A stretch of DNA of 64,000 bases from a virus (taxonomy: Duplodnaviria > Heunggongvirae > Uroviricota > Caudoviricetes), in IMG/VR virus record IMGVR_UViG_2693429668_000006. The stretch is one strand, 5' to 3'. Below the pieces are notes generated by a model. It did not search any database. It was not told the origin of the DNA and worked only from the letters and a program-made list of their open reading frames with translations. Shown here piece by piece: positions 10,061 through 25,510 of this stretch. Made by a program: the position numbers and the translations under genes. The stretch's first letter is position 1; the number at the start of each line of letters is the position of its first letter.

Positions 10061-10290
10061 GTTGTGCAGATTCGAAGCCTCTTTAAATTTTGCGCTGAAA
10101 ATTGTTATTTTACGGTAAGTAACGCTGTTTTCAGCGCATAAATGTCAGTGAATAATTTGATGCTTGCTGTAACGATGGTACGCTACGTAAAATCCGATAT
10201 TTATGAGACTGATTGCAGGTAAGGACTTACATAGCGCACAAAAATTGCTGATACCAGATGCAATATATGTTTAATGTCAAATTTTAGATA

Positions 10291-10306
10291 GGGGCGTATA
10301 CGCCCC
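10291..10306. terminator. palindromic hairpin GGGGCGTATACGCCCC followed by T-rich tract
   Basis: Perfect 16-bp palindrome then TGTCATTATTTTATTTT; abuts the stop of the lipoprotein gene at 10312. Confidence 0.5.
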
Positions 10307-10311
10307 TGTCA

Positions 10312-10866
10312 TTATTTTATTTTATCTTCTTCTAAACGAGAAAATTTAAATTGTTTATCGGTGATGGTGAGTAGTGTTACACCTTCCTTTTCGTGTAAAA
10401 GACCGGCACCGTTTGACACCATAATCAATCTATCCTTCCCTCGAAAGATTTCATAATATTTACCAGCTCCACAAGTTTTAGTTTCAATACAGTCCATGCC
10501 AGATACTGCTTCTCTGTTAAAAACACGATCTTTTGTAGCAACGGGTTTTCCGTACTCCTTTGTCAGCATTTCACTTATCTGGATGAATGTATACTTACCA
10601 ACATTACTGGTTAATGACATTTCGACTTTTCCGTCGATCAGGTTGCCATTCGTATGCGGTTCTTTTTCAGTCGGACTATTTTTATCTTGAAGAATAAACA
10701 CTTCAACATTTTGTGTTAGCTTCTTGAATTGGGCTTTATAATTTTGTTCAAGTTCACTTTTATCTTTGCCTATTAACGTTAATTCATCTATTTCAGATTC
10801 GTTACACCCTGTTAGTGTTAACGCAATTATTAGAGATGCGAAAATATTGAGATGGCACTTCTTCAT
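10312..10866 (-). CDS. lipoprotein (signal peptide with lipobox LTGC)
   Basis: 184 aa; MKKCHLNIFASLIIALTLTGC N-terminus; AT-rich like the neighbouring membrane protein. Confidence 0.6.
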   Translation of the reverse strand: MKKCHLNIFASLIIALTLTGCNESEIDELTLIGKDKSELEQNYKAQFKKLTQNVEVFILQDKNSPTEKEPHTNGNLIDGKVEMSLTSNVGKYTFIQISEMLTKEYGKPVATKDRVFNREAVSGMDCIETKTCGAGKYYEIFRGKDRLIMVSNGAGLLHEKEGVTLLTITDKQFKFSRLEEDKIK

Positions 10867-10985
10867 TAATTTGTCTCCATGTTTAACTGCTGCGATCTAA
10901 TCAGGAACATGAAGGCAGTCTAACGCTGCCTCGGATCAAAGCGATAAAACGATACGTGAATATAACTAAGTGTCAACAAATCAAA

Positions 10986-11006
10986 AAAGGGGCCGAAGCC
11001 CCTTTG
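10986..11006 (-). terminator. rho-independent terminator downstream of the tRNA cluster
   Basis: Stem AAAGGGGC-CGAA-GCCCCTTT; on the minus strand the stem is followed by a run of 6-7 T. Confidence 0.6.
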
Positions 11007-11159
11007 AATTTTGCGCTGAAAAAAGTGTTGCTAGGATGTTAGCAAGCTATGGTTAAGAACGTCTGCCGTAATTGTCTATCACAGCGTTGAGCGGTCTGGT
11101 TTATGTTAGCGGAGTCTTAATCTGGTTGATTAAAAGGCCAAACCGCTCAACGCTGTGTC

Positions 11160-11246
11160 TGGCGGAGAGTAATGGAATCGAACCATCATCGTTTGCACAA
11201 TGGGACGGTTTTCAAGACCGCTTGAGCACCATGCTCCCTACTCTCC
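11160..11246 (-). tRNA. tRNA-Ser (anticodon UGA), class II with long variable arm
   Basis: Minus-strand 87 nt: perfect 7-bp acceptor stem GGAGAGT/ACTCTCC, anticodon loop CTTGAAA, T-arm GGTTCGATTCC, encoded CCA; D-arm atypically short. Confidence 0.6.
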
Positions 11247-11540
11247 AATTGTGTTGTGTGCTCCGTTTCGTGGAGCTAACGGCGGGTGATCAGACCGCAC
11301 CAGGTTGGACGTATTTCAGCGTTATGCTGTTGCAAGAGAGCCAAATTGTGATGGCCGGTGCTGATCTCCGGCATTGCCTACGTTAGCGGCCTTCAGGCAG
11401 TTCATCCGCTTGCTTCTACGTCGCACATCAGCCTGTGCATTCACCACAATGTTGAGAACACTGGTTGTCACGCTGCAACGCAACATTATATTCATAAATT
11501 GGGATATGAACCCGTTACGCCAATGTTCTCAATATTATGT

Positions 11541-11616
11541 TGGTGCCGGTTAACGGACTTGAACCGCTGGCCATTTGCTTACAAAGCGACTGCTCTACCA
11601 ACTGAGCTAAACCGGC
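11541..11616 (-). tRNA. tRNA-Thr-like (anticodon UGU), possibly pseudo-tRNA
   Basis: 76 nt; acceptor GCCGGTT/AACCGGC, D-arm GCTCAGTTGGTAGAGC, T-arm GGTTCAAGTCC, CCA; anticodon loop TTTGTAA, but anticodon stem GTCGC/GCAAA has two mismatches. Confidence 0.5.
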
Positions 11617-11620
11617 AATT

Positions 11621-11707
11621 TGGTGGGGAGTGATGGAGTCGAACCACCCGAGTCGCAATGACAGTAGATTTACAGTCTACACCGCTACCTCTACGGACTA
11701 ACTCCCC
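11621..11707 (-). tRNA. tRNA-Tyr (anticodon GUA)
   Basis: 87 nt; acceptor GGGGAGT/ACTCCCC, anticodon stem-loop GTAGA-CTGTAAA-TCTAC, long variable arm, T-loop TTCGACT, encoded CCA. Confidence 0.8.
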
Positions 11708-11712
11708 TAAAT

Positions 11713-11787
11713 TGGCGATGGTGGGTGGATTCGAACCACCGATCAGTTGGTTAACAGCCAACTGCTCTACCGCTGAGCTACACCATC
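11713..11787 (-). tRNA. tRNA-Asn (anticodon GUU)
   Basis: 75 nt canonical cloverleaf: GATGGTG-TA-GCTC-AGCGGTA-GAGC-A-GTTGG-CTGTTAA-CCAAC-TGATC-GGTGG-TTCGAAT-CCACC-CACCATC-G-CCA. Confidence 0.85.
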
Positions 11788-12576
11788 AATTCAGCACTGC
11801 CAGTATTTATTACTCAGCAGTGCCAATCGCGGCGGTGTTAGTTTTTGCCAATAAACGCACCGCTACTTGCACTTTTCGTTAGTGCCAGACGTTTTCGACT
11901 TCGCTCAATAGAAGGCAAAATCTTTAAGTAGATGATGTTTCTGAGGACAGCACCTACTTTGTAATTTACATAATGCGGTGTATGGAATCATTTGTTGTGA
12001 AAACAGGCACCAATGGCAACAGTGGTTAAACCTACACAACAATCCTGTCTTCACAACGTTGAGGCCACTACCCCGATTGAATGTTTGCCCAACATGTTAC
12101 ATATCAACGTTCGCCAGTATCTCTGTGAATAGAACCTTAGAATTGATAAAAATGTAATGGCCTCAACGTTGTGTGCTGGCTAACCATACCAGCCGGGCTA
12201 CGTCGCCGCTTTTTAACCCAGTATAAACGACATAATTGAACAAAATGACGTAACAGGATGGGCGGTCAGTGGCTAAGAATCCGGGAGTGATATGGAGTTG
12301 GAAATATACCGACCGCCCATTCTGTTACTTCATCGGAGAGGGCATGGGTGGTGCCGTATCATGCCCTCTCCTGCGTTCTGCAATCACACTCGCTCAGTGT
12401 GTCCCATTTCGGTAACGAGGCTGGAAACTGACCTCGCTGGTGTTTGGCTTATTAGGCTACTGCCAGATAGACTTCTTCGTTTGCACTTGTATTTAAGTTC
12501 AAACAGTCGCGTCTCAACGAAAACAAAGCCATCTTATACATAAAAGATAAGTAAGTAAATACTTATCGTGATGTTT

Positions 12577-13228: not shown

Positions 13229-13391
13229 CCTTAATCTCCTTCACTGTGTGGGTTATTTCTACAATGCGATAAATACGACCGCGTCGTTCTATAACACCGC
13301 TTTTAATGTAGTCATTGATGCAACTGGACATCACCACAATACCGATTAAAAAACCAACCGCTAAAAATGCAATCATCCAGCCGAGCATCAT
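13212..13391 (-). CDS. small membrane protein (59 aa, below ORF-track cutoff)
   Basis: Hand-translated MMLGWMIAFLAVGFLIGIVVMSSCINDYIKSG...; ATG overlaps ligase stop, 3' end overlaps next gene. Confidence 0.35.
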   Translation of the reverse strand: MMLGWMIAFLAVGFLIGIVVMSSCINDYIKSGVIERRGRIYRIVEITHTVKEIKDDRIK

Positions 13392-14710
13392 TCTTTATCT
13401 CCGATTCGATCTTCTGTATCGCGTAAGCAACGCGGCCATTTCAGTCGTGGGTGGCGTAAGCTGCCGTCCGGTGTTTTCTCGTGACAATGAACCTCAACAA
13501 TACGACCACGGTACTTCTCTTTGTTGTTCCAGATCTCGTCCAGATATTTATGCTTAATGCCGCTCGCACGAACAATCACACCGTTTTCAAGGCGAATAAC
13601 AATTTTTCCAAGCGTGTTGGCAAAACCAGAGTCCGGGTCGCCCGACTCAAAGTCGATAATTTCACCATCTTCTGAATCTTCGTCTTTTAACTTCCACCAG
13701 CTGCGGGTACGTTTAAACTCGTAAACAGAGTTCGGATCTTTGCCCATCTCCCCTTCTTCGTTATCGTCAAGGCGTTTCATGAAGCGTTCGATGAAGTCTT
13801 CGTGGCTATGGATGATATAGAACGGATGCAGGTGAATGTCTTGTGTGTAGCCTTCACTGCGATCGTTTTTGAACAACGCCACGAGAATAGCCAGGCGCTC
13901 TTTCAGCTTCATACCTGTCTTTGCATACTCTTTGGATTTAGCCTGTGCCCGCCATTCCGGTAGGAAGAAGTCGAAAACATGATAAATAGCGCCAATTGCC
14001 TGCACGTTCTTTTTGCGCAATGCAGATACGGACTGGTTAAATGAACCGGCTGTTCCTTCACCATCGAAGAAGATGTGTTTGTGGCCTGAAAGTTTGCCTA
14101 ATTCGAGCATTGCTGGCTTTAGGTGATCGAGAGACGTGATTGGATTACCAGTACGAGAAAGGAAGTTAACCTCTTCCTCGTCAACAATAACCTCGCAAAT
14201 TACTCGCAAACCATCGAGCTTAAGACTGCCAATCATCGGCCATTTTGCTTTAGGGTTTGGCTTGAAGGGGTATTTGTCGCCTTTTTCTTTATACGGTGAC
14301 GCCAGCTGCACCTCGAATTTCGGAATGGGATTTTCAAAAACCTTGTTGCATAGGCTAATCCCAACACCCGCTTTCGGGTCTTTTAAGAGGAAACGACGGA
14401 ACACGTCCTGCCCATCGGCGCACATTGACGCCACGATAGACTCAACAGCAGCTATTGCTGCGTTCCCCGTCAGCTCGCGAGAGGCCAGCTTATTCAGTAC
14501 ATCAATGGCTTTTTCGTCACTTGGGACGGACTCACTAAGCGGCTCTGCCACTTTGTATTTCTTTACCCCAAAACGGATGAAAGGGTTGAGCATCAATGAA
14601 ACCATGCTTTGTTCAAAGTCATCCATGTTGGCCAATGCCTCTTTTTTTGCATTGGTTCCCATAGCTTTCATTTCGTCCAGCTTATGCTTAAGTGCGATCA
14701 ACTTTTTCAT
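13388..14710 (-). CDS. ATP-dependent DNA ligase
   Basis: 440 aa; adenylation motif I KxDG in MIGSLKLDGLRVI; size and layout as in T7/T4-type ligases. Confidence 0.85.
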   Translation of the reverse strand: MKKLIALKHKLDEMKAMGTNAKKEALANMDDFEQSMVSLMLNPFIRFGVKKYKVAEPLSESVPSDEKAIDVLNKLASRELTGNAAIAAVESIVASMCADGQDVFRRFLLKDPKAGVGISLCNKVFENPIPKFEVQLASPYKEKGDKYPFKPNPKAKWPMIGSLKLDGLRVICEVIVDEEEVNFLSRTGNPITSLDHLKPAMLELGKLSGHKHIFFDGEGTAGSFNQSVSALRKKNVQAIGAIYHVFDFFLPEWRAQAKSKEYAKTGMKLKERLAILVALFKNDRSEGYTQDIHLHPFYIIHSHEDFIERFMKRLDDNEEGEMGKDPNSVYEFKRTRSWWKLKDEDSEDGEIIDFESGDPDSGFANTLGKIVIRLENGVIVRASGIKHKYLDEIWNNKEKYRGRIVEVHCHEKTPDGSLRHPRLKWPRCLRDTEDRIGDKE

Positions 14711-15177
14711 TGTTGTTTTGCCTCCATATGTTGATCGATTTGCTCATGTGTTTCTTTTGTTGTTTCTTCAATCAACGCCGCATACACGTCAGTGATCGCT
14801 GTTTGTGATGTGGCGCTCTTCTTAACCATGCTATTAATCATTACACTGTCACGTTTTCGTTTTATAGTTCTGGCTTGTTTATTCCGTTCTTCAACCTCCT
14901 TAATGAGTGCGGTCATATCTTCGAAATACAGAGATTCTCCTTTACGAATCTCTTCAACCATCATTTTTAACGCCTTGCATTTGCCTGCTTTAATAGCGGT
15001 TGCGCACGACTGGAAAGACGTTCGAGGAAGACGGTTTTCTTTGAAGGCAAGAATGGTGTGCTGGCAAACGGAGTAGCTGCAATATGCCGACTCACCGTTT
15101 ATCTTTACTTCCTCACAACGAAGTGAATAACCGTTATTTCCTGAAATAGAAGGGACTTTTGACAAATCAGCTTTCAC
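14707..15177 (-). CDS. hypothetical protein (156 aa)
   Basis: ORF track; ATGA-coupled to ligase gene; no motif recognised. Confidence 0.5.
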   Translation of the reverse strand: MKADLSKVPSISGNNGYSLRCEEVKINGESAYCSYSVCQHTILAFKENRLPRTSFQSCATAIKAGKCKALKMMVEEIRKGESLYFEDMTALIKEVEERNKQARTIKRKRDSVMINSMVKKSATSQTAITDVYAALIEETTKETHEQIDQHMEAKQQ

Positions 15178-15244
15178 AATTACCGCCAGAAATAATCTTG
15201 TGCTTACCTATCATTATTTGCGTAAAAAACGACACACAGAGAGC

Positions 15245-16027
15245 TTACCAACTTCCCCAGCTAATCATCTTGCGCTGATCGCTTTCTAAGCGATAGGGGG
15301 CAAGAAGCTCTGTGACATGATTGGTGGCGTATGATTTGGCCTCTTGCTCTATCATCGGTAATTCGTTAGCAATCCTGACCATCTTCCCAGCAAATTCCGC
15401 CATTACGCCATCACACGCCTTACCCGCATCAACAATGATATGCACAAGATCCAACTGGCTTTTGCACATGTCCCAAAGAGTCGAATATTCGCTCTCCCTG
15501 ATTAGGTTTACAGCATCATTAGCCCCTTTATTAATCAAAACCTCCAACAGATTTGTCGGGGTGACGAAATCGGCTTTCAGAGACAATGTTGGTTCAGCTT
15601 TTACCGACAGCAAGTAATCTTCAAAGTTTTGCTTGTCTTCCAGCAAAGCTAAACTACGCATAGCTCGAATTGATTCTCGAATAACGGCTTCAATATGTTC
15701 GTCACCTGGAGGACAGATAATGGTATCTGTATAGATGACTCTGCCATCAAACCACGCCCCAACCTGCACTTTTAGAGTTCGTAAGTTTTCTTTGCGTACA
15801 AAAACAACTAATGCAGAACGTCGTGCATGTGCAGGTTCGCCCCATACGCACAACTTAACCTTCAGATAAGGTAGCCCCGGTAGAGGGATCTCGACCAAAC
15901 GAGTGGCGATATGATCCATTGCCGTATTGACGGCTTTTTCAATGATGTCTAGCCGATTGCTCTCGCTGATTTCTAAACCAGTTTTATCAATGATGTTGCA
16001 GGCTAATCTCTTAATTTCTTCTTTCAT
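15245..16027 (-). CDS. hypothetical protein (260 aa)
   Basis: ORF track; operon-leading gene with promoter-like motif 40-60 nt upstream (16069-16089). Confidence 0.5.
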   Translation of the reverse strand: MKEEIKRLACNIIDKTGLEISESNRLDIIEKAVNTAMDHIATRLVEIPLPGLPYLKVKLCVWGEPAHARRSALVVFVRKENLRTLKVQVGAWFDGRVIYTDTIICPPGDEHIEAVIRESIRAMRSLALLEDKQNFEDYLLSVKAEPTLSLKADFVTPTNLLEVLINKGANDAVNLIRESEYSTLWDMCKSQLDLVHIIVDAGKACDGVMAEFAGKMVRIANELPMIEQEAKSYATNHVTELLAPYRLESDQRKMISWGSW

Positions 16028-16152
16028 ACCAACTCCTAGCTAACGGATGAAAGTATTCTTACAAAAACTTAAGTATGTATCTACTTATCATTTTAGGTGC
16101 AATAGTTCTTTATACTAAGATGCCGGGCATATCCTCAGCCCAGCATTCACCT

Positions 16153-16566
16153 TTAATGAGCTACAGCCTCACTGTTGCACATCTTTCTGTAGACCTGCTT
16201 ATAACGCTGTAAATCATGAGGATCATTAGGTGCCAACGACTTCGATAGGATTTTGTATACCACCCCTTTTGAAAACATGCCCTTTGGCTTCATTTCGAGT
16301 TCAACAACATATGAGTGATAGCCCACGTATGCACCAAAGCCATTTTTGGCGTTTAATTCACCACACACAAAGCCTGTCACACTCCCATCATCATGATCAG
16401 TCCTGACAAACTTATCTTTCCTAAACATCACCGACGTGGGATCTTTCATATCATCCGCAATTGCCTGTTGGCCCAGAGTAATAGCCTTCTCGTCTGTAGG
16501 CTTACACCCAACTAATGCAAACAACGACAATAAAGCACCTGTTAAAATCAACTTCTTTTTGCGCAT
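16153..16566 (-). CDS. lipoprotein (lipobox LVGC)
   Basis: 137 aa; MRKKKLILTGALLSLFALVGC signal/lipobox. Confidence 0.6.
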   Translation of the reverse strand: MRKKKLILTGALLSLFALVGCKPTDEKAITLGQQAIADDMKDPTSVMFRKDKFVRTDHDDGSVTGFVCGELNAKNGFGAYVGYHSYVVELEMKPKGMFSKGVVYKILSKSLAPNDPHDLQRYKQVYRKMCNSEAVAH

Positions 16567-16793
16567 TTTGACTTCCCTTTATTTATATTTATCGTAGGTA
16601 TTAGTTAACCAAAACACGAGCCGTGTCACAATAATTCCATAGCTCATTATTTCCATCAGTGATTAATATCACATCAACTTTACAGTTCATAAATTATCAA
16701 AGCTGACAGATTAACTAAATTTAAGTACCCTTTTCGCACACTTGACGCTTGCCGCGTCTAAACTGTTCATCCTATATCAACAGAACATAAAAT

Positions 16794-18047
16794 ATGAAAC
16801 TCATAAAACCTTCATCGTTGCTGGCATTAGCTTTGCTTTTCGGCCCTGGATACGTTAACGCAGATAATAAACAAACGCTGATCGACGCCGCCACCGCAGG
16901 AGATACCACAGCACAAAGTGCGTTAGGGACAAATTATTTGGATGGGGCTAATGGCTTTGATGAGGATTTAGTAGAGGCCAAGAAGTGGATCGATCTCGCC
17001 GCAGAAAAGGGAGATAAAGTAGCATATTATGCGCTTGGGGTTATGTACACAATTGGGAAGGGAGTAGATAAAGATCTAAATAAGGCCGTTGAGTACTACA
17101 AACTAGCAGGAAATGCTCGCAACGGCAGTGCTTACCATAATCTTGCCGTTATATACGAACGAGGTTGGACTGGAAAGGAGGACCCAGAAGCTGCTTTAAA
17201 ATATCACAAACTAGCAGTAGAAGCTGGTGATATACCTTCGCTTGCCTATATGGGATATTTATATCAATACGGTAAGGGAGTTCCGAAAGATTACAAGAAA
17301 GCATTTAAATCTTATAAAAAGGCTGCGGATAGTGGAAATGCCGCAGGAATGTATGGGCTAGGCTCTATGTACGACGATGGTGTTGCTGTTAAGCGCAACA
17401 ATAAAGAGGCAATTAAGTGGTACTTGAAAGCAGCTGAATTAGGAAATAATAACGCCATGAGCGCGCTTGGATACAAGTTGATGCATGGAGAAGGTATAAA
17501 AAAAGACTATTCGAAGGCCAGAAGTCTTTTAGAACAAGCAATCAGCTTAGGAAATGATTATGCCATGAACCACCTTGGTTACATGTATCTTAAGGGATTG
17601 GGCGTCAAACAGGATTATCGGAAAGCATCAGAGCTTTACCAAGCTGCTTGCGATAAAGATGACGAAACGGGCTGCGAAAACGTTGCTGCAATGAAAGCAA
17701 AAGGTACGTTCCGTTCGCCTTCAAAACAGCAAAATGCCAAATCTGACACTCAGCGACTTATTGCTAAATCCATTGATAAAGGCGTTAACGCAACATTTAC
17801 CTGGCAGGGTGATGATGCCGTCTTCACCGCTAATGATGGCAAAGTTGACTGCACCTTCTTGAAGGATTTTTCAGAGAAAGGAGGCAATCTGGCTACCTCG
17901 TTTGTTTGCACCGATAACGTTCAAATCATCCTGAAGCAATTCAGAGATACCAAGAATGCCTACCTCGCGGTAATGACTGACAACTTCAACACAGAAGTTA
18001 AATCATTTTCGGTCAATGTTTACGTGACTAATACTGGTTCAAACTAA
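16794..18047 (+). CDS. secreted Sel1-repeat (SLR/TPR-like) protein
   Basis: 417 aa; signal peptide MKLIKPSSLLALALLFGPGYVNA; at least 7 tandem ~36-aa Sel1 repeats (A..YxLGxMYxxGxGVxxDxxxAxxWYxKAA pattern). Confidence 0.8.
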   Translation: MKLIKPSSLLALALLFGPGYVNADNKQTLIDAATAGDTTAQSALGTNYLDGANGFDEDLVEAKKWIDLAAEKGDKVAYYALGVMYTIGKGVDKDLNKAVEYYKLAGNARNGSAYHNLAVIYERGWTGKEDPEAALKYHKLAVEAGDIPSLAYMGYLYQYGKGVPKDYKKAFKSYKKAADSGNAAGMYGLGSMYDDGVAVKRNNKEAIKWYLKAAELGNNNAMSALGYKLMHGEGIKKDYSKARSLLEQAISLGNDYAMNHLGYMYLKGLGVKQDYRKASELYQAACDKDDETGCENVAAMKAKGTFRSPSKQQNAKSDTQRLIAKSIDKGVNATFTWQGDDAVFTANDGKVDCTFLKDFSEKGGNLATSFVCTDNVQIILKQFRDTKNAYLAVMTDNFNTEVKSFSVNVYVTNTGSN

Positions 18048-19220
18048 TGCTGCTATACCTTTTACCTTGCTTAAAAGTTCAAGCTGTCGTGAGTAAGGTT
18101 TTGCGCAATAGTAGGCTTTGATAATCTGCCCCGGTGTCGCATCGCCGGGGTCGAGTCCTTCCTCGCCCAAACACGCAACTTTGACATTAAGACCAATACT
18201 GGTCAGTCGCCTGGCTGCGGCCATCGTGTTTCGTATAGCTTGCTTTTCACTATCCCACATCATGATCACATTACGTAATCCACGCGCCTTGAGCGTCAGG
18301 AACGCGCCCAACTGATCTTCTGCATCCTGAGTGGTGTTGCCAGATAGATGCATCCCGAACGTTCCTATTGGCTCCACGTAATCACGTAATGTTTCTTCGT
18401 CGAAAATAGCTCGTTTGACCCCCATAACATCGAACGCACCCTCACAGACAACTACAGTCTGTTTGCCGACTGCATTATGGCCGTTGTAGAGAAATTTACC
18501 TGAAGCTGGAAGCTGCATAGGAAAGAGGTAGCGGCGTTCTGCTGTACCGGTAATGTCTCGTCCCTGAAATGTCTTCATTACCCCATCCAGATCGTAAACC
18601 GGTATCAGTATTCGCATATCGAATATCTGCCCTTTTACCTGATCTGTATACGGATCTACATAAGCGTGCTTGCCTTCGACGCAGTATCGTAGGTCAAAAT
18701 ACTTTGCCATTTCAGGTGATATGTTTCGTTCAACCAGATAGTCTGGAAGACGGCCATCTATAGGAAGCTCGTAATGACGAGGGAGTGCAACTGGCCCCTC
18801 TAACTCGACTGTGCTTGCAAGCACTAGCTCTTCTTTCTTTGGTGTCCACCCCTGGGAAAGAAGAGCGTTCTGCACATATTCCTCGAACTGTCGTCGTGAT
18901 TTACCGCTGTAGTGCTTGAGGAAGACCAGCTTATTGAACTGAATCTCTTCGGGATGATCACCAGCGAAGCATTTGCCGACGCCACTGGTCAGATTGAAAT
19001 ATACCTTCCAGTTGGAGCTGCCGCATACCGGACACTCTTTGATATTCACTTCACGACCGCGAGCACTCACGCCTCCACGTCGATAAACGATACCTTCAGT
19101 ATCCAACCATTGTTCAAAATCTAATTCGGCAATTAGCTCTTTCAGCTCGCTCACGATAATTCCACTTTTAACAGGCAATATTGTGACCAACCTAAATGTT
19201 GATATAACATAAAGGCTCAT
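18039..19220 (-). CDS. DNA primase (zinc-finger plus TOPRIM)
   Basis: Zn-binding CPVCGSSNWKVYFNLTSGVGKCFAGDHPEE; TOPRIM region VVVCEGAFDVMGV. ORF-track start 19292 lies inside a terminator hairpin, so start placed at ATG 19220 (GTG at 19154 also possible). Confidence 0.75.
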   Translation of the reverse strand: MSLYVISTFRLVTILPVKSGIIVSELKELIAELDFEQWLDTEGIVYRRGGVSARGREVNIKECPVCGSSNWKVYFNLTSGVGKCFAGDHPEEIQFNKLVFLKHYSGKSRRQFEEYVQNALLSQGWTPKKEELVLASTVELEGPVALPRHYELPIDGRLPDYLVERNISPEMAKYFDLRYCVEGKHAYVDPYTDQVKGQIFDMRILIPVYDLDGVMKTFQGRDITGTAERRYLFPMQLPASGKFLYNGHNAVGKQTVVVCEGAFDVMGVKRAIFDEETLRDYVEPIGTFGMHLSGNTTQDAEDQLGAFLTLKARGLRNVIMMWDSEKQAIRNTMAAARRLTSIGLNVKVACLGEEGLDPGDATPGQIIKAYYCAKPYSRQLELLSKVKGIAALV

Positions 19221-19271
19221 GTGTTTTTCTTTTGTGGTTTGGCAAAAGAAAAGTTGTTTCACCAATGAATC

Positions 19272-19296
19272 AAGCGTGGAGGTGTTCTCCACGCTT
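19272..19296. terminator. hairpin AAGCGTGGAG-gtgtt-CTCCACGCTT with flanking T-run
   Basis: Perfect 10-bp stem between helicase stop (19302) and primase; T6 follows on plus strand, A6 precedes. Confidence 0.55.
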
Positions 19297-19301
19297 ATTT
19301 T

Positions 19302-20642
19302 TTAGGTAACGTCTAAGATTCGCTCAATGAAGCGCATTTGTTCGAGGTTTTGTTTAACGCGAATGCTGATCCCTCCCTGCTGGTTACGTGAACCGGCAAA
19401 GTAGAGACGAGCCTCTCCTTTCGCTTCTTCTTCTTCGGTTTTGTTGATCGTTATTACCAGGTCAGCAATACGTACTTTTTCGATGTTGTCGGCAGCGTGC
19501 ATCATTGTGGCAACTTCTGACGCGCCACCTTCACGGTTTGTCTGCGATGCCGTGATCCCAGCAACGTTATGCTTGTCATAAAGAGCACGTAAATCGGTGT
19601 AGATACTACGAATGTTGGCGCGATCATCACGAAGGTCATAACTGGCACGCATCAAATCTGCGTAGTCGACAACAACCATGTCAGGCACCATGCCGTTGGC
19701 TTTCATGCTGTTAAGCATACGGTCCAGATCTGCCGGTGACATACTTCCTGACGGACGCTCAACAACCCACAAACTACCAATCCCCTTAGAGGCTCCCAAC
19801 TCTGCCAACTTACGATGAACTTCATCGCGCCGTTCCACCAACTTGGACATTTCCGTCTCCGACAATCTTGCATCAAAACGGTCGGACAAAATGTTGGTGT
19901 GAACCTCCAGCGAGAGATACAGAACATTGTAGCCAGCAAGCGTTGCGTTTATGGAAAACTCGCCCATTGCGGTCGATTTACCGGATTTAGCGAACCCCAT
20001 GAAGAGCACCATTTCGCGCTTTGCCCAGCCTTTTTGGTACAGCAACCTATCGAGAAGAGGGAGTCCAGTTGTAATACTGTTTGGTACATACTCCTCTGAA
20101 GCCTCATATTCACGCGCTTTCAATCGCTCACTTGCGGAGGTGTAGTAGTCATAGATTCCGGTCGCTTCGTTCGATCCAATCTGCTGAACCTTGGCCATGA
20201 TTGCCATCGCCCCCTGAAAGTCGCCCTTCTCTTTCAGTTCAGCAGCCTTAATCAGAGCATCATCAAACGCTACGCTTTTTGCGAAGGTTGATACCTGGTC
20301 AACCATGTACGAGGTATCGGACAATTTTTCTGCAAGGATGCGCTTAAACGCAACAACAACATCGGCGAATAGTTCCTCACGGATAGTCTTATCGCGTTTC
20401 GCACGCTTAAGCATATCCAGAATTGCAGATGAAGAGGGCGCGCTCTTGTACATACGGTAATAGCCCGAAACCATATTAACCAATATGGCATTGGCCGCAT
20501 TGGCAAATTGGCTAGGCACAACCAGATCTCCCGCACGAGTAAGAAACTCGTGATCACGACAAAAATATGCCGTCAGTCTGTTCTGGAAATCTTCATCAAA
20601 CTCTTCGGACAGCCCGCGTCCTGTATGGCAAAGTTCGGTCAT
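19302..20642 (-). CDS. replicative DNA helicase (DnaB-like, RecA-fold)
   Basis: 446 aa; Walker A GFAKSGKST in C-terminal half, N-terminal helical domain, layout of DnaB/T7 gp4-type helicases. Confidence 0.8.
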   Translation of the reverse strand: MTELCHTGRGLSEEFDEDFQNRLTAYFCRDHEFLTRAGDLVVPSQFANAANAILVNMVSGYYRMYKSAPSSSAILDMLKRAKRDKTIREELFADVVVAFKRILAEKLSDTSYMVDQVSTFAKSVAFDDALIKAAELKEKGDFQGAMAIMAKVQQIGSNEATGIYDYYTSASERLKAREYEASEEYVPNSITTGLPLLDRLLYQKGWAKREMVLFMGFAKSGKSTAMGEFSINATLAGYNVLYLSLEVHTNILSDRFDARLSETEMSKLVERRDEVHRKLAELGASKGIGSLWVVERPSGSMSPADLDRMLNSMKANGMVPDMVVVDYADLMRASYDLRDDRANIRSIYTDLRALYDKHNVAGITASQTNREGGASEVATMMHAADNIEKVRIADLVITINKTEEEEAKGEARLYFAGSRNQQGGISIRVKQNLEQMRFIERILDVT

Positions 20643-21607: not shown

Positions 21608-23314
21608 TTAATGATTGAGTATTTTATTAACACGCAGCTTATTAAGTGTTGATTTTGAAGCAACTTCCTCCAAAGCTTCTATTGCTTTATCAGTGATGCT
21701 CTTCTGTTCGTCTGTCGGGTGTTGCATACCCTTGAACTTGAGCATAGTCTCTTCTACTAAATTCAAAGCATCCTGATCACAGGATAATATCCAGTTTACG
21801 TAATCATCTTTAGAAAAACTGTTAAGAATATTCACATCACTATGGTTAAATCTTCCACCAGCTATTTTTTTTATAATTTTATCTAAGTTATAGTCATCTG
21901 GATTTCTATCTTTCAATTTTTTTTCAATTCTGAAACCTAATTCTTCATTTCCGAAGATCTCTACTCGCAAAGAATTAAATGTAGCATACGCATTGTCTTT
22001 ATTAACAAAAGCATCTGCATATGCCTCTATAATATTATTACAATCTCTATCCAATTTGATTAGGACATTTATTAAACCTACGAACTGTCCAATTGGTATA
22101 CGCAACAGACTATCGTTAATTACGCGCTCAATTTGAAAAATAAACTCTGATTCATTATCTTTAAAAGAGTTTCTAAAAACATCCCAAATTTTATAAACCT
22201 CACATAAAACCCTATTATCTCTATATTGTTCATTTTTTTCTTTTATTATATTTAGAATATTGCTTTCAGAAGACACATAACCGTTCTTAAGGTAAAAATC
22301 TATATCATCATCGAAAGCACTTTCTGCTCGTTCATAAATAATATCAAGGCTATTAACAAATGAATATACAGAGTTAACTTCTTCCTTTTCATCTTTATCA
22401 TCTAACATATAGTCGAATGCATGTATATTTTTGATTGACTCCTTAAATGAAGCATAATCAACGCTAGGAACACCAAAATAGTAAACCACTGAAAATAAGA
22501 CCAATCTATTAATAAAACTTTCTCTAACCTTATCCTCTGCTAACTTTAGCACATCTCTAAATATAACTAGAGATGATTTTATTTTATTTAATATTCTAAT
22601 GTTTTTGATGTTTAAATCATTTGCTAGGTTTTTTAACAAAAGAAAATCAGGGTCAGTCTCATAAAAAACTTTTCTTAAGTTTTTCTCAGGCGTGGGATCG
22701 TATTTTATTTCCACATCAATTATTTTTTCTCTATACTCTAAAAACTGTTGTTGTGCAGTTTCTTCATGTAAGTTATCTTCATTTAATATTAGAACAACCT
22801 TGCAATTTTTTCTTCTTGCCAACTCATCAATTACCCCCATAATCTCTTTAATTTCTAGCGCACTACCTTTTCGTTCAATATCATCAATGCAAACCAAATA
22901 ATTATTAACAAATTTATACTCAAGAGATGACAGCAGATTATCAGTTTTGAACCCAAAAAAATCGTTCTTTCCAAAATGTATTAAAAATTTTGACAAGGAG
23001 TTGTATTTCAACCATCCCCAAAACCCATTTCTATAACGAATCATAGTTCGATCCGTTTCAGATAAAATCAGTTCTTTATATTTCTTTTCATTAATTGGTG
23101 TGGCACAATGATAAAGAGCTTTTTTAATGTCTCCAATAGAATTTATTCCAAACAAAGAAACATATGAATATGCATTAAAATCTAATTTTTTAGAATGTTT
23201 AGTATAAAAGCTATTCCAATAATGCGTTTTACCTACTCCCCAATTTCCTTTTATGACAGCAACCCGATGATCTGAGTCCAAAAAATTTTTTAAAAATACT
23301 TCTATCGATTCCAT
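21608..23314 (-). CDS. KAP-family P-loop NTPase
   Basis: 568 aa; KAP-type Walker A VIKGNWGVGKTHYW and Walker B-like LVCIDDIERKG (compare GxWGxGKS and IDDLDR of KAP NTPases); gene body strongly AT-rich. Confidence 0.7.
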   Translation of the reverse strand: MESIEVFLKNFLDSDHRVAVIKGNWGVGKTHYWNSFYTKHSKKLDFNAYSYVSLFGINSIGDIKKALYHCATPINEKKYKELILSETDRTMIRYRNGFWGWLKYNSLSKFLIHFGKNDFFGFKTDNLLSSLEYKFVNNYLVCIDDIERKGSALEIKEIMGVIDELARRKNCKVVLILNEDNLHEETAQQQFLEYREKIIDVEIKYDPTPEKNLRKVFYETDPDFLLLKNLANDLNIKNIRILNKIKSSLVIFRDVLKLAEDKVRESFINRLVLFSVVYYFGVPSVDYASFKESIKNIHAFDYMLDDKDEKEEVNSVYSFVNSLDIIYERAESAFDDDIDFYLKNGYVSSESNILNIIKEKNEQYRDNRVLCEVYKIWDVFRNSFKDNESEFIFQIERVINDSLLRIPIGQFVGLINVLIKLDRDCNNIIEAYADAFVNKDNAYATFNSLRVEIFGNEELGFRIEKKLKDRNPDDYNLDKIIKKIAGGRFNHSDVNILNSFSKDDYVNWILSCDQDALNLVEETMLKFKGMQHPTDEQKSITDKAIEALEEVASKSTLNKLRVNKILNH

Positions 23315-24672: not shown

Positions 24673-24981
24673 TTGATGGCCTTCCTACATCACGGCCATC
24701 AGGAGGAATACATGTCAGCACTAAAAAAGCAGCGCATCGATTTGAGATTAACCGATGACGATAAAAGCATCATCGAGGAAGCTGCCGCAATGTCTAACCA
24801 GAGCATTACTCAGTTTATGGTTAGCAGTGCATCTGAACGTGCCGTGAAAGTTATAGAGCAACACCGTAGACTAGTTCTGAATGAAGAATCCTGGAATCTG
24901 GTTATGGACGCTATAAGCAATCCTCCGGCACCGAACGACAAGCTGAAACGAGCTGCTGATCGTCTGAAAAGCATGGAGTAG
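24673..24981 (+). CDS. tacA: antitoxin, TacA/DUF1778-like (RHH) partner of GNAT toxin
   Basis: 102 aa; RIDLRLTDDDKSIIEEAAAMSNQSITQFMVSSASERA matches the DUF1778 pattern; real start probably the internal ATG at 24712; 7-nt gap to toxin gene. Confidence 0.75.
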   Translation: MMAFLHHGHQEEYMSALKKQRIDLRLTDDDKSIIEEAAAMSNQSITQFMVSSASERAVKVIEQHRRLVLNEESWNLVMDAISNPPAPNDKLKRAADRLKSME

Positions 24982-24988
24982 TTTACTC

Positions 24989-25510
24989 GTGAGCAATACA
25001 ACGATAGAGATTTTCTCTGGAGAGAAAGATTATGATCTAAACGGTTTTGATTGCGGCGAAGAGTCACTAAACGCCTTTTTAGCCAACCACTTAAAAAGGC
25101 AGCATGAGGGAAAAATTCTTCGTGCTTATGTGCTTTGCACTCAAGAAGAAAGGCCAAAAGTGTTAGGATATTACACTTTGTCAGGTAGTTGTTTTGAAAA
25201 GGAGTCCTTACCTTCAAGAAGCAAACAAAAGAAGGTTCCTTATCGGAATGTTCCAAGTGTTACTTTGGGTAGGCTGGCTTTGGACAAGTCCCTTCAAGGT
25301 CAAGGATTTGGCTCAATGCTTGTAACACATGCAATGCGCGTTGTGTACAATGCATCTCTTGCTGTAGGCATTCATGGACTTTTCGTTGAGGCGTTAAATG
25401 ACAAAGCCAAGGCGTTTTATAAAAGTTTAGGCTTTATCCAGCTGGTTGGTAACAACGAGCGTTCTTTGTTCTATCCTACAAAATCTATCGAAAAATTGTT
25501 CGAAGAATAA
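24989..25510 (+). CDS. tacT: GNAT-family acetyltransferase toxin (TacT/AtaT-like)
   Basis: 173 aa; GNAT motif A region LQGQGFGSMLV; immediately follows the DUF1778 antitoxin. Confidence 0.8.
   Translation: MSNTTIEIFSGEKDYDLNGFDCGEESLNAFLANHLKRQHEGKILRAYVLCTQEERPKVLGYYTLSGSCFEKESLPSRSKQKKVPYRNVPSVTLGRLALDKSLQGQGFGSMLVTHAMRVVYNASLAVGIHGLFVEALNDKAKAFYKSLGFIQLVGNNERSLFYPTKSIEKLFEE

Follow-up and report, generated by a model that had tools for sequence, protein, structure and literature searches.

The window analysed here is the whole 64,000-nt stretch of the IMG/VR virus record IMGVR_UViG_2693429668_000006, and the subject of this work is an insert of about 1.95 kb in it that carries two genes, one for a lipoprotein (bp 16153–16566, minus strand, 137 aa) and one for an exported Sel1-repeat protein (bp 16794–18047, plus strand, 417 aa). 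Both open reading frames had been named in a preliminary description of the sequence and were found to exist at these positions. The window is an Escherichia coli SSU5-like phage-plasmid; bp 15000–19500 was 94–97% identical to Escherichia phages PhiR41_1, Cyrano and CMS-2020a and 80% identical to Salmonella phage SSU5, and the region was 100% identical to E. coli plasmids of ~110 kb, for example p19KM1803_1. The region is an optional cargo cassette (moron) holding two independent envelope-protein genes. Phage morons encoding envelope proteins are a well-known kind of element; neither of the two protein families found here has a characterised member.

The cassette is located in the leftward replication operon, the genes of which were identified by Pfam and PHROGs, between orf260 (bp 15245–16027), encoding a 260-aa protein without assigned function, and the primase gene (bp 18039–19292, minus strand). 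Comparison with annotated relatives by blastn revealed that the cassette (bp 16089–18038) replaces the 69–75 bp orf260–primase spacer of cassette-free relatives. Homology to PhiR41_1 stopped at bp 16088 and restarted at bp 18094, with about 2 kb here versus 69 bp there, and orf260 and the primase gene were 75 bp apart in PhiR41_1, Cyrano, CMS-2020a, pPEC178_2 and Esc9 plasmid 2. Since the primase protein was full length and collinear up to the last residue, the insert sits in the spacer. The helicase-primase backbone was present in 253 of 5,426 complete E. coli genomes (~5%), and 62 of the 253, about a quarter, contained the cassette, every copy of which was plasmid-borne; the 417-aa Sel1 allele of the window was found in 10 of these 62 carriers, which were isolates from humans, livestock, pets and birds. 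The empty-site relatives indicate that the cassette is dispensable for the phage-plasmid. At the same site, SSU5 had an unrelated plus-strand gene, SSU5_041, and a more distant phage-plasmid had phd/doc and fimbrial genes; the orf260–primase spacer is a cargo hotspot.

The insert is DNA between genes that are adjacent in related phages, as in the Juhala/Hendrix definition of a moron. No convincing terminator of its own was found; the 3′ ends of the Sel1 and primase genes overlap, and the lipoprotein gene continues into orf260. The GC content was 0.40–0.43 in the cassette versus 0.44–0.48 in the flanks, a small difference. The proposal in the preliminary description that the two genes are morons was borne out by the absence of the block from otherwise 94–97% identical phages, by its presence in about one quarter of the backbone carriers, by the recurrence of both protein families as inserts in unrelated temperate phages, and by a promoter-like block that travels with the Sel1 gene (see below).

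The lipoprotein begins with MRKKKLILTGALLSLFALVGC followed by KP, which includes a canonical lipobox, LVGC, with Lys at +2, in agreement with the preliminary assignment. The signal peptide and lipobox (MRKKKLILTGALLSLFALVG followed by C21; bp 16504–16566, minus strand), recognised from the sequence and a hydropathy calculation, have the layout MRKKK-LILTGALLSLFA-LVGC, that is, a positive N-terminus, a hydrophobic core and the lipobox, which fits the bacterial lipoprotein pattern. By the +2 rule of E. coli, the Lys predicts that the mature protein (~117 aa, PHROG 2320) would be sorted to the outer membrane via Lol. The lipobox followed by K-P recurs in nearly all of 80 viral relatives. A pair of imperfect 27-nt inverted repeats (bp 16154–16180 and bp 16623–16649; 70% complementary, with a 10-nt perfect core) brackets the lipoprotein gene; such a pair was estimated to be at chance level for 2.4 kb and was not considered meaningful.

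An exhaustive HMMER search yielded a lipoprotein family of 1,308 cluster representatives (clusters at 50% identity), sharing the motif KDPxSxxFR...CGExNAKNxFGAYxG and a conserved Cys68/Cys130 pair. Nearly invariant were D42, P43, S45, F48, the block C68-G-x-x-N-A-K-N-x-x-G-x-Y-x-G and C130, and a few members were fused to SPOR, SH3 or peptidoglycan-binding domains. The AlphaFold2 (AF2) model of the lipoprotein, with a predicted local distance difference test (pLDDT) score of 91.4, consists of a helix, four antiparallel strands and a C-terminal helix, a cystatin/NTF2-like fold. The lipoprotein had no match in Pfam, NCBIfam or PADLOC and matched only function-unknown families in PHROGs; a sequence-profile search of the PDB gave no match, and a fold search of predicted viral structures matched only uncharacterised proteins. 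With tblastn, only 12 of 50,697 phage records were matched, from phages of Salmonella, Klebsiella, Escherichia (LMessi and Fraca), Acinetobacter, Pseudomonas and Paracoccus.

A scan of IMG/VR gave more than 416 relatives of the lipoprotein, the best 80 loci of which were used to count gene positions. In 47 of the 80, the lipoprotein gene was located directly upstream of the tape-measure gene; in 12, all P2-like, it was at the prophage end, downstream of D/ogr, as exemplified by phages SEN4 and SEN5. Five loci had it between the tape-measure and M/L genes, three between K and I (also the position of the homologues in phage Fraca and a Xenorhabdus prophage) and three in SSU5-like phage-plasmids, and ten were unplaced. 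The order tail tube, DUF6246, lipoprotein and TMP_3 was confirmed by Pfam in two examples. It was also noticed that the slot upstream of the tape-measure gene may hold several inserts, as in viral contigs L065 (bp 2815–5381) and L070 (bp 4107–5378), the former containing Bro-N and Rha-like genes alongside the lipoprotein homologue; the inserts of L065 suggest that this slot is a general moron hotspot. The tail chaperone and tape-measure genes flank the first described moron, gene 15 of HK97, the product of which stops genome injection in a tail-dependent manner (PMC3594210).

Some of these observations bear on a possible role in envelope housekeeping or peptidoglycan metabolism, in which the lipoprotein would inhibit or regulate a cell-wall hydrolase. 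In one version, it would be a cystatin-fold inhibitor of papain-like NlpC/P60 (C40) peptidases, with protein K of the tail tip and amidase toxins as examples of targets. The Sel1 protein would serve as a scaffold in the periplasm like ExoR, MotX or AlgK, and the two together would tune envelope stress or lysis timing to the benefit of the phage-plasmid. The cystatin fold of the model and the SPOR, SH3 and peptidoglycan-binding fusions in some family members are in line with such a role, as is the position of several homologues directly after a K gene encoding Prok-JAB and NLPC_P60 domains. A C40 peptidase is encoded in the tail module of this phage-plasmid lineage, and the NCBIfam search with the Sel1 protein gave sub-threshold matches to MotX, ExoR, AlgK and MerG. 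However, the fold match of the lipoprotein is not specific, most of its relatives adjoin the tape-measure gene and not K, and the phage-plasmid can do without the cassette, so that we regard this role as quite unlikely.

The Sel1-repeat protein matched phrog_8741 with an E value of 2e-199. Its first 23 residues (bp 16794–16862), MKLIKPSSLLALALLFGPGYVNA followed by DN, comprise a basic n-region, a hydrophobic core and a predicted cleavage site between VNA and DN, which fits a Sec signal cleaved by signal peptidase I; an export-type N-terminus was present in all 20 Sel1 alleles examined, and residues 1–22 were disordered in the AF2 model (pLDDT <50). Comparison with the Pfam family Sel1 (PF08238) gave an E value of 5.4e-56 and 185.5 bits (cutoff, 30.7) over seven stretches, and the AF2 model, built from 16 homologues, revealed a solenoid of 16 helices in eight pairs with pLDDT >90. 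By Pfam and AF2 together, eight Sel1-like helical hairpins occupy residues 24–305 (bp 16863–17708), the last of which contains a conserved Cys286/Cys294 pair (Cys-x7-Cys cap). The preliminary description of a signal peptide and at least seven Sel1 repeats was thus correct in both respects, and export of both products is well supported by the signals present; what it had missed was a C-terminal domain of about 100 aa that is not Sel1-like.

This domain, connected to the solenoid by a short linker in the AF2 model, is all-beta and forms an eight-strand meander (residues 318–417, bp 17745–18044; pLDDT ~70). It is the most conserved part of the family, with 34 invariant columns including Cys353/Cys372. 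It had no Pfam match even at E ≤ 10 and no sequence match in the PDB; the Foldseek results for the whole model were dominated by the solenoid and not by this domain. Members of the family share an architecture consisting of a signal peptide, six to eight Sel1 hairpins, the Cys-x7-Cys cap, a linker and the beta domain. Their distribution is narrow: only five species-level genomes (Escherichia whittamii, a Pantoea, two Leclercia and a Pseudenterobacter) were found to have the gene, in addition to E. coli phage-plasmids and enterobacterial prophages. It is most likely that the product is a soluble periplasmic protein exported by Sec, and the combination of Sel1 repeats and a beta domain with a recombining middle appears to be undescribed.

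In the Foldseek search, the solenoid was similar to LpnE, EsiB (c5321), LceB and HcpC with E values of 1e-16 to 1e-13 and a probability of 1.0. These proteins and those of Oxalobacter, for which structures have been solved, share with the Sel1 protein a solenoid of 36-aa alpha/alpha hairpins, a signal peptide and 27–34% identity over ~285 residues, whereas none of them has the ~100-aa beta C-terminal domain, and carriage by phages and the allele mosaic described below are specific to the family in the window. Membership of the Hcp subfamily was rejected; apart from C286/C294 of the last repeat and C353/C372 of the C-terminal domain, the protein has no cysteines, and there is not one pair per repeat. 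The preliminary description had noted that Sel1-repeat proteins often mediate interactions with eukaryotic hosts, and the two genes could accordingly be lysogenic-conversion factors, the Sel1 protein being released or surface-exposed and acting in a manner similar to EsiB (on secretory IgA), LpnE or HcpC, and the lipoprotein adding serum resistance like Bor/Iss, or adhesion. LpnE, EsiB (c5321, 34% identity over the repeats), LceB and HcpC are indeed the best structural matches, the carriers came from human, livestock, pet and bird isolates, and lom and bor of lambda are precedents for host-directed morons (PMC3594210). Nevertheless, the matches span only the generic Sel1 solenoid, so that the similarity to EsiB, LpnE and HcpC is generic to such solenoids; no secretion signal other than that for Sec was seen, nor was a dedicated secretion system linked to the Sel1 gene, and no route beyond the periplasm is evident. 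The Sel1 family is also present in plant- or environment-associated genera (Pantoea and Leclercia), and the lipoprotein is not similar to Bor/Iss, its relatives being found in tail modules of phages of many non-pathogens, including Paracoccus and Xenorhabdus. A host-directed function is therefore improbable, and the claim of host interaction, in the sense of a eukaryotic host, was not supported; the phage contexts suggest phage-versus-phage or envelope defence instead.

Alignment of the Sel1 alleles revealed a hypervariable island (bp 16840–17740) in which nucleotide identity was 55–86%, compared to 95–100% in the flanking DNA, with a return to 93–100% after the island. Residues 96–305 were 48% and 39% identical to those of two other phage-plasmid alleles, the C-terminal domain being 98–99% identical among those alleles, and were equally close or closer (53–57%) to alleles of other genera. 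The alleles also differ by whole repeats, having 6, 7 or 8 (345, 381 or 417 aa). Between alleles, the synonymous sites were saturated and the nonsynonymous divergence (dN) was ~0.3, suggesting that the alleles are old and are not the result of fast local evolution. Within the group of 381-aa alleles, dN was well below the synonymous divergence (dS), which suggests that the gene has been kept functional. We interpret the pattern, on these sequence comparisons, as old functional alleles brought by recombination into a young backbone, with local hypermutation not being the source. Other origins of the variability were considered: positive selection was rejected, as saturated dS with dN of ~0.3 means old alleles, and repeat slippage was rejected, as the gene has no DNA-level tandem repeats and the differences in repeat number are old. 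No reverse-transcriptase gene, as would belong to a diversity-generating retroelement, was found among the proteins annotated in the region.

Outside the phage-plasmids, the gene for the Sel1 protein with the C-terminal domain (Sel1-CTD) was found downstream of tail-fibre genes at the ends of lambdoid prophages and, in a P2-like phage, between the tail tube and tail chaperone genes. On the chromosome of E. whittamii (viewed in locus L045, bp ~5500–8950), a homologue with 90% identity in the C-terminal domain and the same promoter-like block was situated in an islet between yciB-side genes and tonB, with no phage genes nearby. In Pseudenterobacter timonensis (L009, bp 3768–11894), the homologue was amid fragments of orphan filamentous-haemagglutinin/PT-VENN toxins and small downstream open reading frames, a locus that resembles a contact-dependent-inhibition island.

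Immunity and specificity genes typically combine deep allelic polymorphism with conserved ends, and one homologue, that of Pseudenterobacter, lies among orphan CdiA-CT (PT-VENN) modules. Both facts would suit orphan immunity genes directed against toxins acting in the periplasm, such as type VI effectors, colicins or contact-dependent-inhibition toxins; the Sel1 solenoid would neutralise effectors, the lipoprotein would act as another immunity protein unrelated to it, and the host would be protected from competitors. A precedent is Sel1E of Klebsiella, which neutralises VgrG4 and belongs to a locus where five Sel1 paralogues follow the toxin gene (PMC7108748), and PA5086, PA5087 and PA5088 of Pseudomonas (Tli5) were among the Foldseek matches with E values of ~1e-5. 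Like the protein studied here, these are Sel1 solenoids occurring as multiple divergent paralogues or alleles, and theirs neutralise an incoming protein (PMC7108748). They differ in that the window has no adjacent cognate effector gene, that the similarity is weak (E ~1e-5), much weaker than that to generic Sel1 proteins, and that an extra C-terminal domain is present here. No effector, vgrG, PAAR or Rhs gene adjoined the Sel1-CTD gene in any context inspected, and assignment to the type VI immunity class of the Tli5/Sel1E type was rejected on this lack of effector-like neighbours. In addition, CdiI immunity proteins are cytoplasmic, and the lipoprotein family is associated with tail modules of phages and not with toxin loci. 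We consequently give toxin immunity little likelihood.

The lipoprotein and Sel1 genes are divergent around a 227-bp intergenic region (bp 16567–16793; 33% GC), the ends of which are conserved among alleles and the middle of which (bp ~16635–16700) is variable. They had been described as convergent; the convergent partner of the Sel1 gene is in fact the primase gene, the 3′ ends of the two overlapping by 9 nt (bp 18039–18047) with no terminator between them. Intergenic regions bearing promoters had been proposed on both sides of the Sel1 gene. On the primase side there is no intergenic region because of this overlap, and a consensus promoter scan gave 3 sites compared to 5.9 ± 2.5 in shuffled sequences, not above chance. 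In the divergent region, on the other hand, cross-context comparison revealed a conserved promoter-like block, CTGACA-N17-TACCCT (bp 16703–16731, plus strand), about 60–90 nt before the start codon of the Sel1 gene. It is the single match of the type CTGACA-N17-TAMCCT in the window, with 0.01 expected by chance, and was kept in seven of the nine contexts compared, which include phage-plasmids, the P2-like phage, the E. whittamii islet and Pseudenterobacter; there the spacer is 17 nt long and the second hexamer reads TAACCT or TATTCT, while the flanks do not align. The block, with a weak -10 element, is a candidate sigma-70-type promoter of the Sel1 gene itself, from which the gene may be expressed in lysogens. 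The lipoprotein gene has a good ribosome-binding site and only weak promoter candidates and is in line with the leftward operon, against which the Sel1 gene is oriented. The latter had been called the only plus-strand gene of the replication module; this holds between ~10.9 and 23.3 kb, and other plus-strand genes are nearby in the left arm (bp 6652–7038 and bp 8732–10060).

Relatives among viral contigs showed three states of the site: lipoprotein and Sel1 genes together, Sel1 alone (L019–L021 and L035–L036), and a frameshifted lipoprotein gene (L032). When the other contexts were scanned with a profile of the lipoprotein family, no member turned up beside the Sel1 gene. Because phage-plasmids with Sel1 alone exist and no adjacent lipoprotein homologue was found in those contexts, the two genes do not form an obligate pair, and the lipoprotein as an obligate partner of the Sel1 protein was rejected.

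By analogy with morons of the tail region, we tentatively favour, as a plausible reading somewhat short of a probable one, that both proteins shield the lysogen at the envelope from incoming phages, with the middle of the Sel1 protein as an exchangeable specificity module. This reading is drawn from genomic position, the allele pattern and the precedent of tail-region morons, and neither from homology nor from experiment. The variable solenoid would be a ligand-binding module, and the conserved beta domain, with its predicted disulfide, would be a constant module that anchors the protein or carries out its effect. The lipoprotein would display its cystatin/NTF2-like domain with the strongly conserved polar motif. 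Both proteins may bind components of the invader crossing the periplasm, such as its tail tip, tape measure or ejection machinery, and the outcome would be superinfection exclusion at or after adsorption, with swapped Sel1 alleles determining which invaders get recognised. A more specific proposal, which we hold to be unlikely, is that the two families are two uncharacterised classes of periplasmic anti-phage factor: a lipoprotein family in the slot of HK97 gp15 that would stop the tail tip or tape measure from crossing the periplasm, possibly by inhibiting the tail C40 peptidase via the cystatin-like fold, and a polymorphic Sel1 "trap", in which the beta domain would position a solenoid retargeted by recombination between deep alleles.

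Known exclusion proteins resemble the two products in part. HK97 gp15 (YebO-like) is likewise a small envelope protein encoded by an optional insert of temperate phages, and the lipoprotein family occupies the same slot in 47 of the 80 loci; however, there is no sequence or fold relationship, gp15 being a small inner-membrane protein, whereas the ~117-aa product here is a lipoprotein with a lipobox and a cystatin/NTF2-like domain, encoded in the replication module. Cor of phi80, N15 and mEp167 and Llp of T5 are also phage-encoded lipoproteins that block re-infection; they reside in the inner leaflet of the outer membrane, and their genes lie close to those for tail or receptor-binding proteins. 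They are smaller and bind FhuA, and no homology to them was detected in NCBIfam, PHROG annotations or the tblastn records. Identity of the lipoprotein with Cor or Llp was rejected, as no annotated exclusion family was matched. A spanin pair (Rz/Rz1) was rejected as well, since the lipoprotein is a folded 117-aa domain, the putative partner is a soluble Sel1 protein and the location is the replication module.

Several findings weigh against superinfection exclusion. Searches of Pfam, NCBIfam, PADLOC and PHROGs matched no exclusion family, none of the 12 records matched by tblastn had an annotated exclusion gene, and T5, phi80 and N15 were not among them. A literature search by protein accession and topic found nothing on the lipoprotein or the Sel1 gene and no expression or phenotype data. 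The tail-module position is circumstantial, as morons at such positions also include virulence or fitness genes, e.g., lambda lom, and the cassette of the window is in the replication module and not in a tail module. The motif of the lipoprotein is strongly conserved over more than 1,300 clusters from distant taxa; together with the SPOR, SH3 and peptidoglycan-binding fusions, this conservation suggests that a conserved target, e.g., peptidoglycan, would fit better than a variable phage protein. Furthermore, the Sel1-CTD gene is also found where no phage is nearby, in a chromosomal islet and in an apparent contact-dependent-inhibition island.

Other genes of the replication operon are those for a DnaB-like helicase (bp 19302–20642), a 156-aa protein and an ATP-dependent ligase (bp 13388–14710). 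Elsewhere in the window, a 568-aa KAP-family P-loop NTPase is encoded on the minus strand (bp 21608–23314) within the lowest-GC kilobase (28.5%); it matched the PADLOC candidate defence family PDC-S49 with an E value of 2e-21. At the same position, related phage-plasmids have either a LEM-3-like GIY-YIG gene on the plus strand or a different hypothetical gene, suggesting a second variable hotspot for cargo or defence genes. An open reading frame of 442 aa (bp 8732–10060, plus strand; ~31% GC) matched nothing in Pfam or PADLOC and probably represents a further acquired cargo gene. Four clustered tRNA genes, Ser-tga, Thr-tgt, Tyr-gta and Asn-gtt, were located within the phage-plasmid at bp 11160–11787 on the minus strand. 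A DUF1778/GNAT gene pair (bp 24712–25510, plus strand), elsewhere annotated as a TacA-family antitoxin and an acetyltransferase toxin, adjoins a gene for a ParA/MipZ-like ATPase and is probably a toxin-antitoxin module for plasmid maintenance.

The variable cargo of SSU5-like phage-plasmids decides what their hosts receive. If the two genes function in superinfection exclusion, the lipoprotein family would rank among the commonest unrecognised exclusion factors of Gram-negative siphophages, the Sel1 protein would exemplify a specificity module that is shuffled by recombination and acts in the periplasm, and both would be relevant to predicting the host range of phages and to whether phage therapy succeeds against lysogens. 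If they have another function, two small genes with natural variants in presence, absence and allele would still provide a clean and cheap test case.

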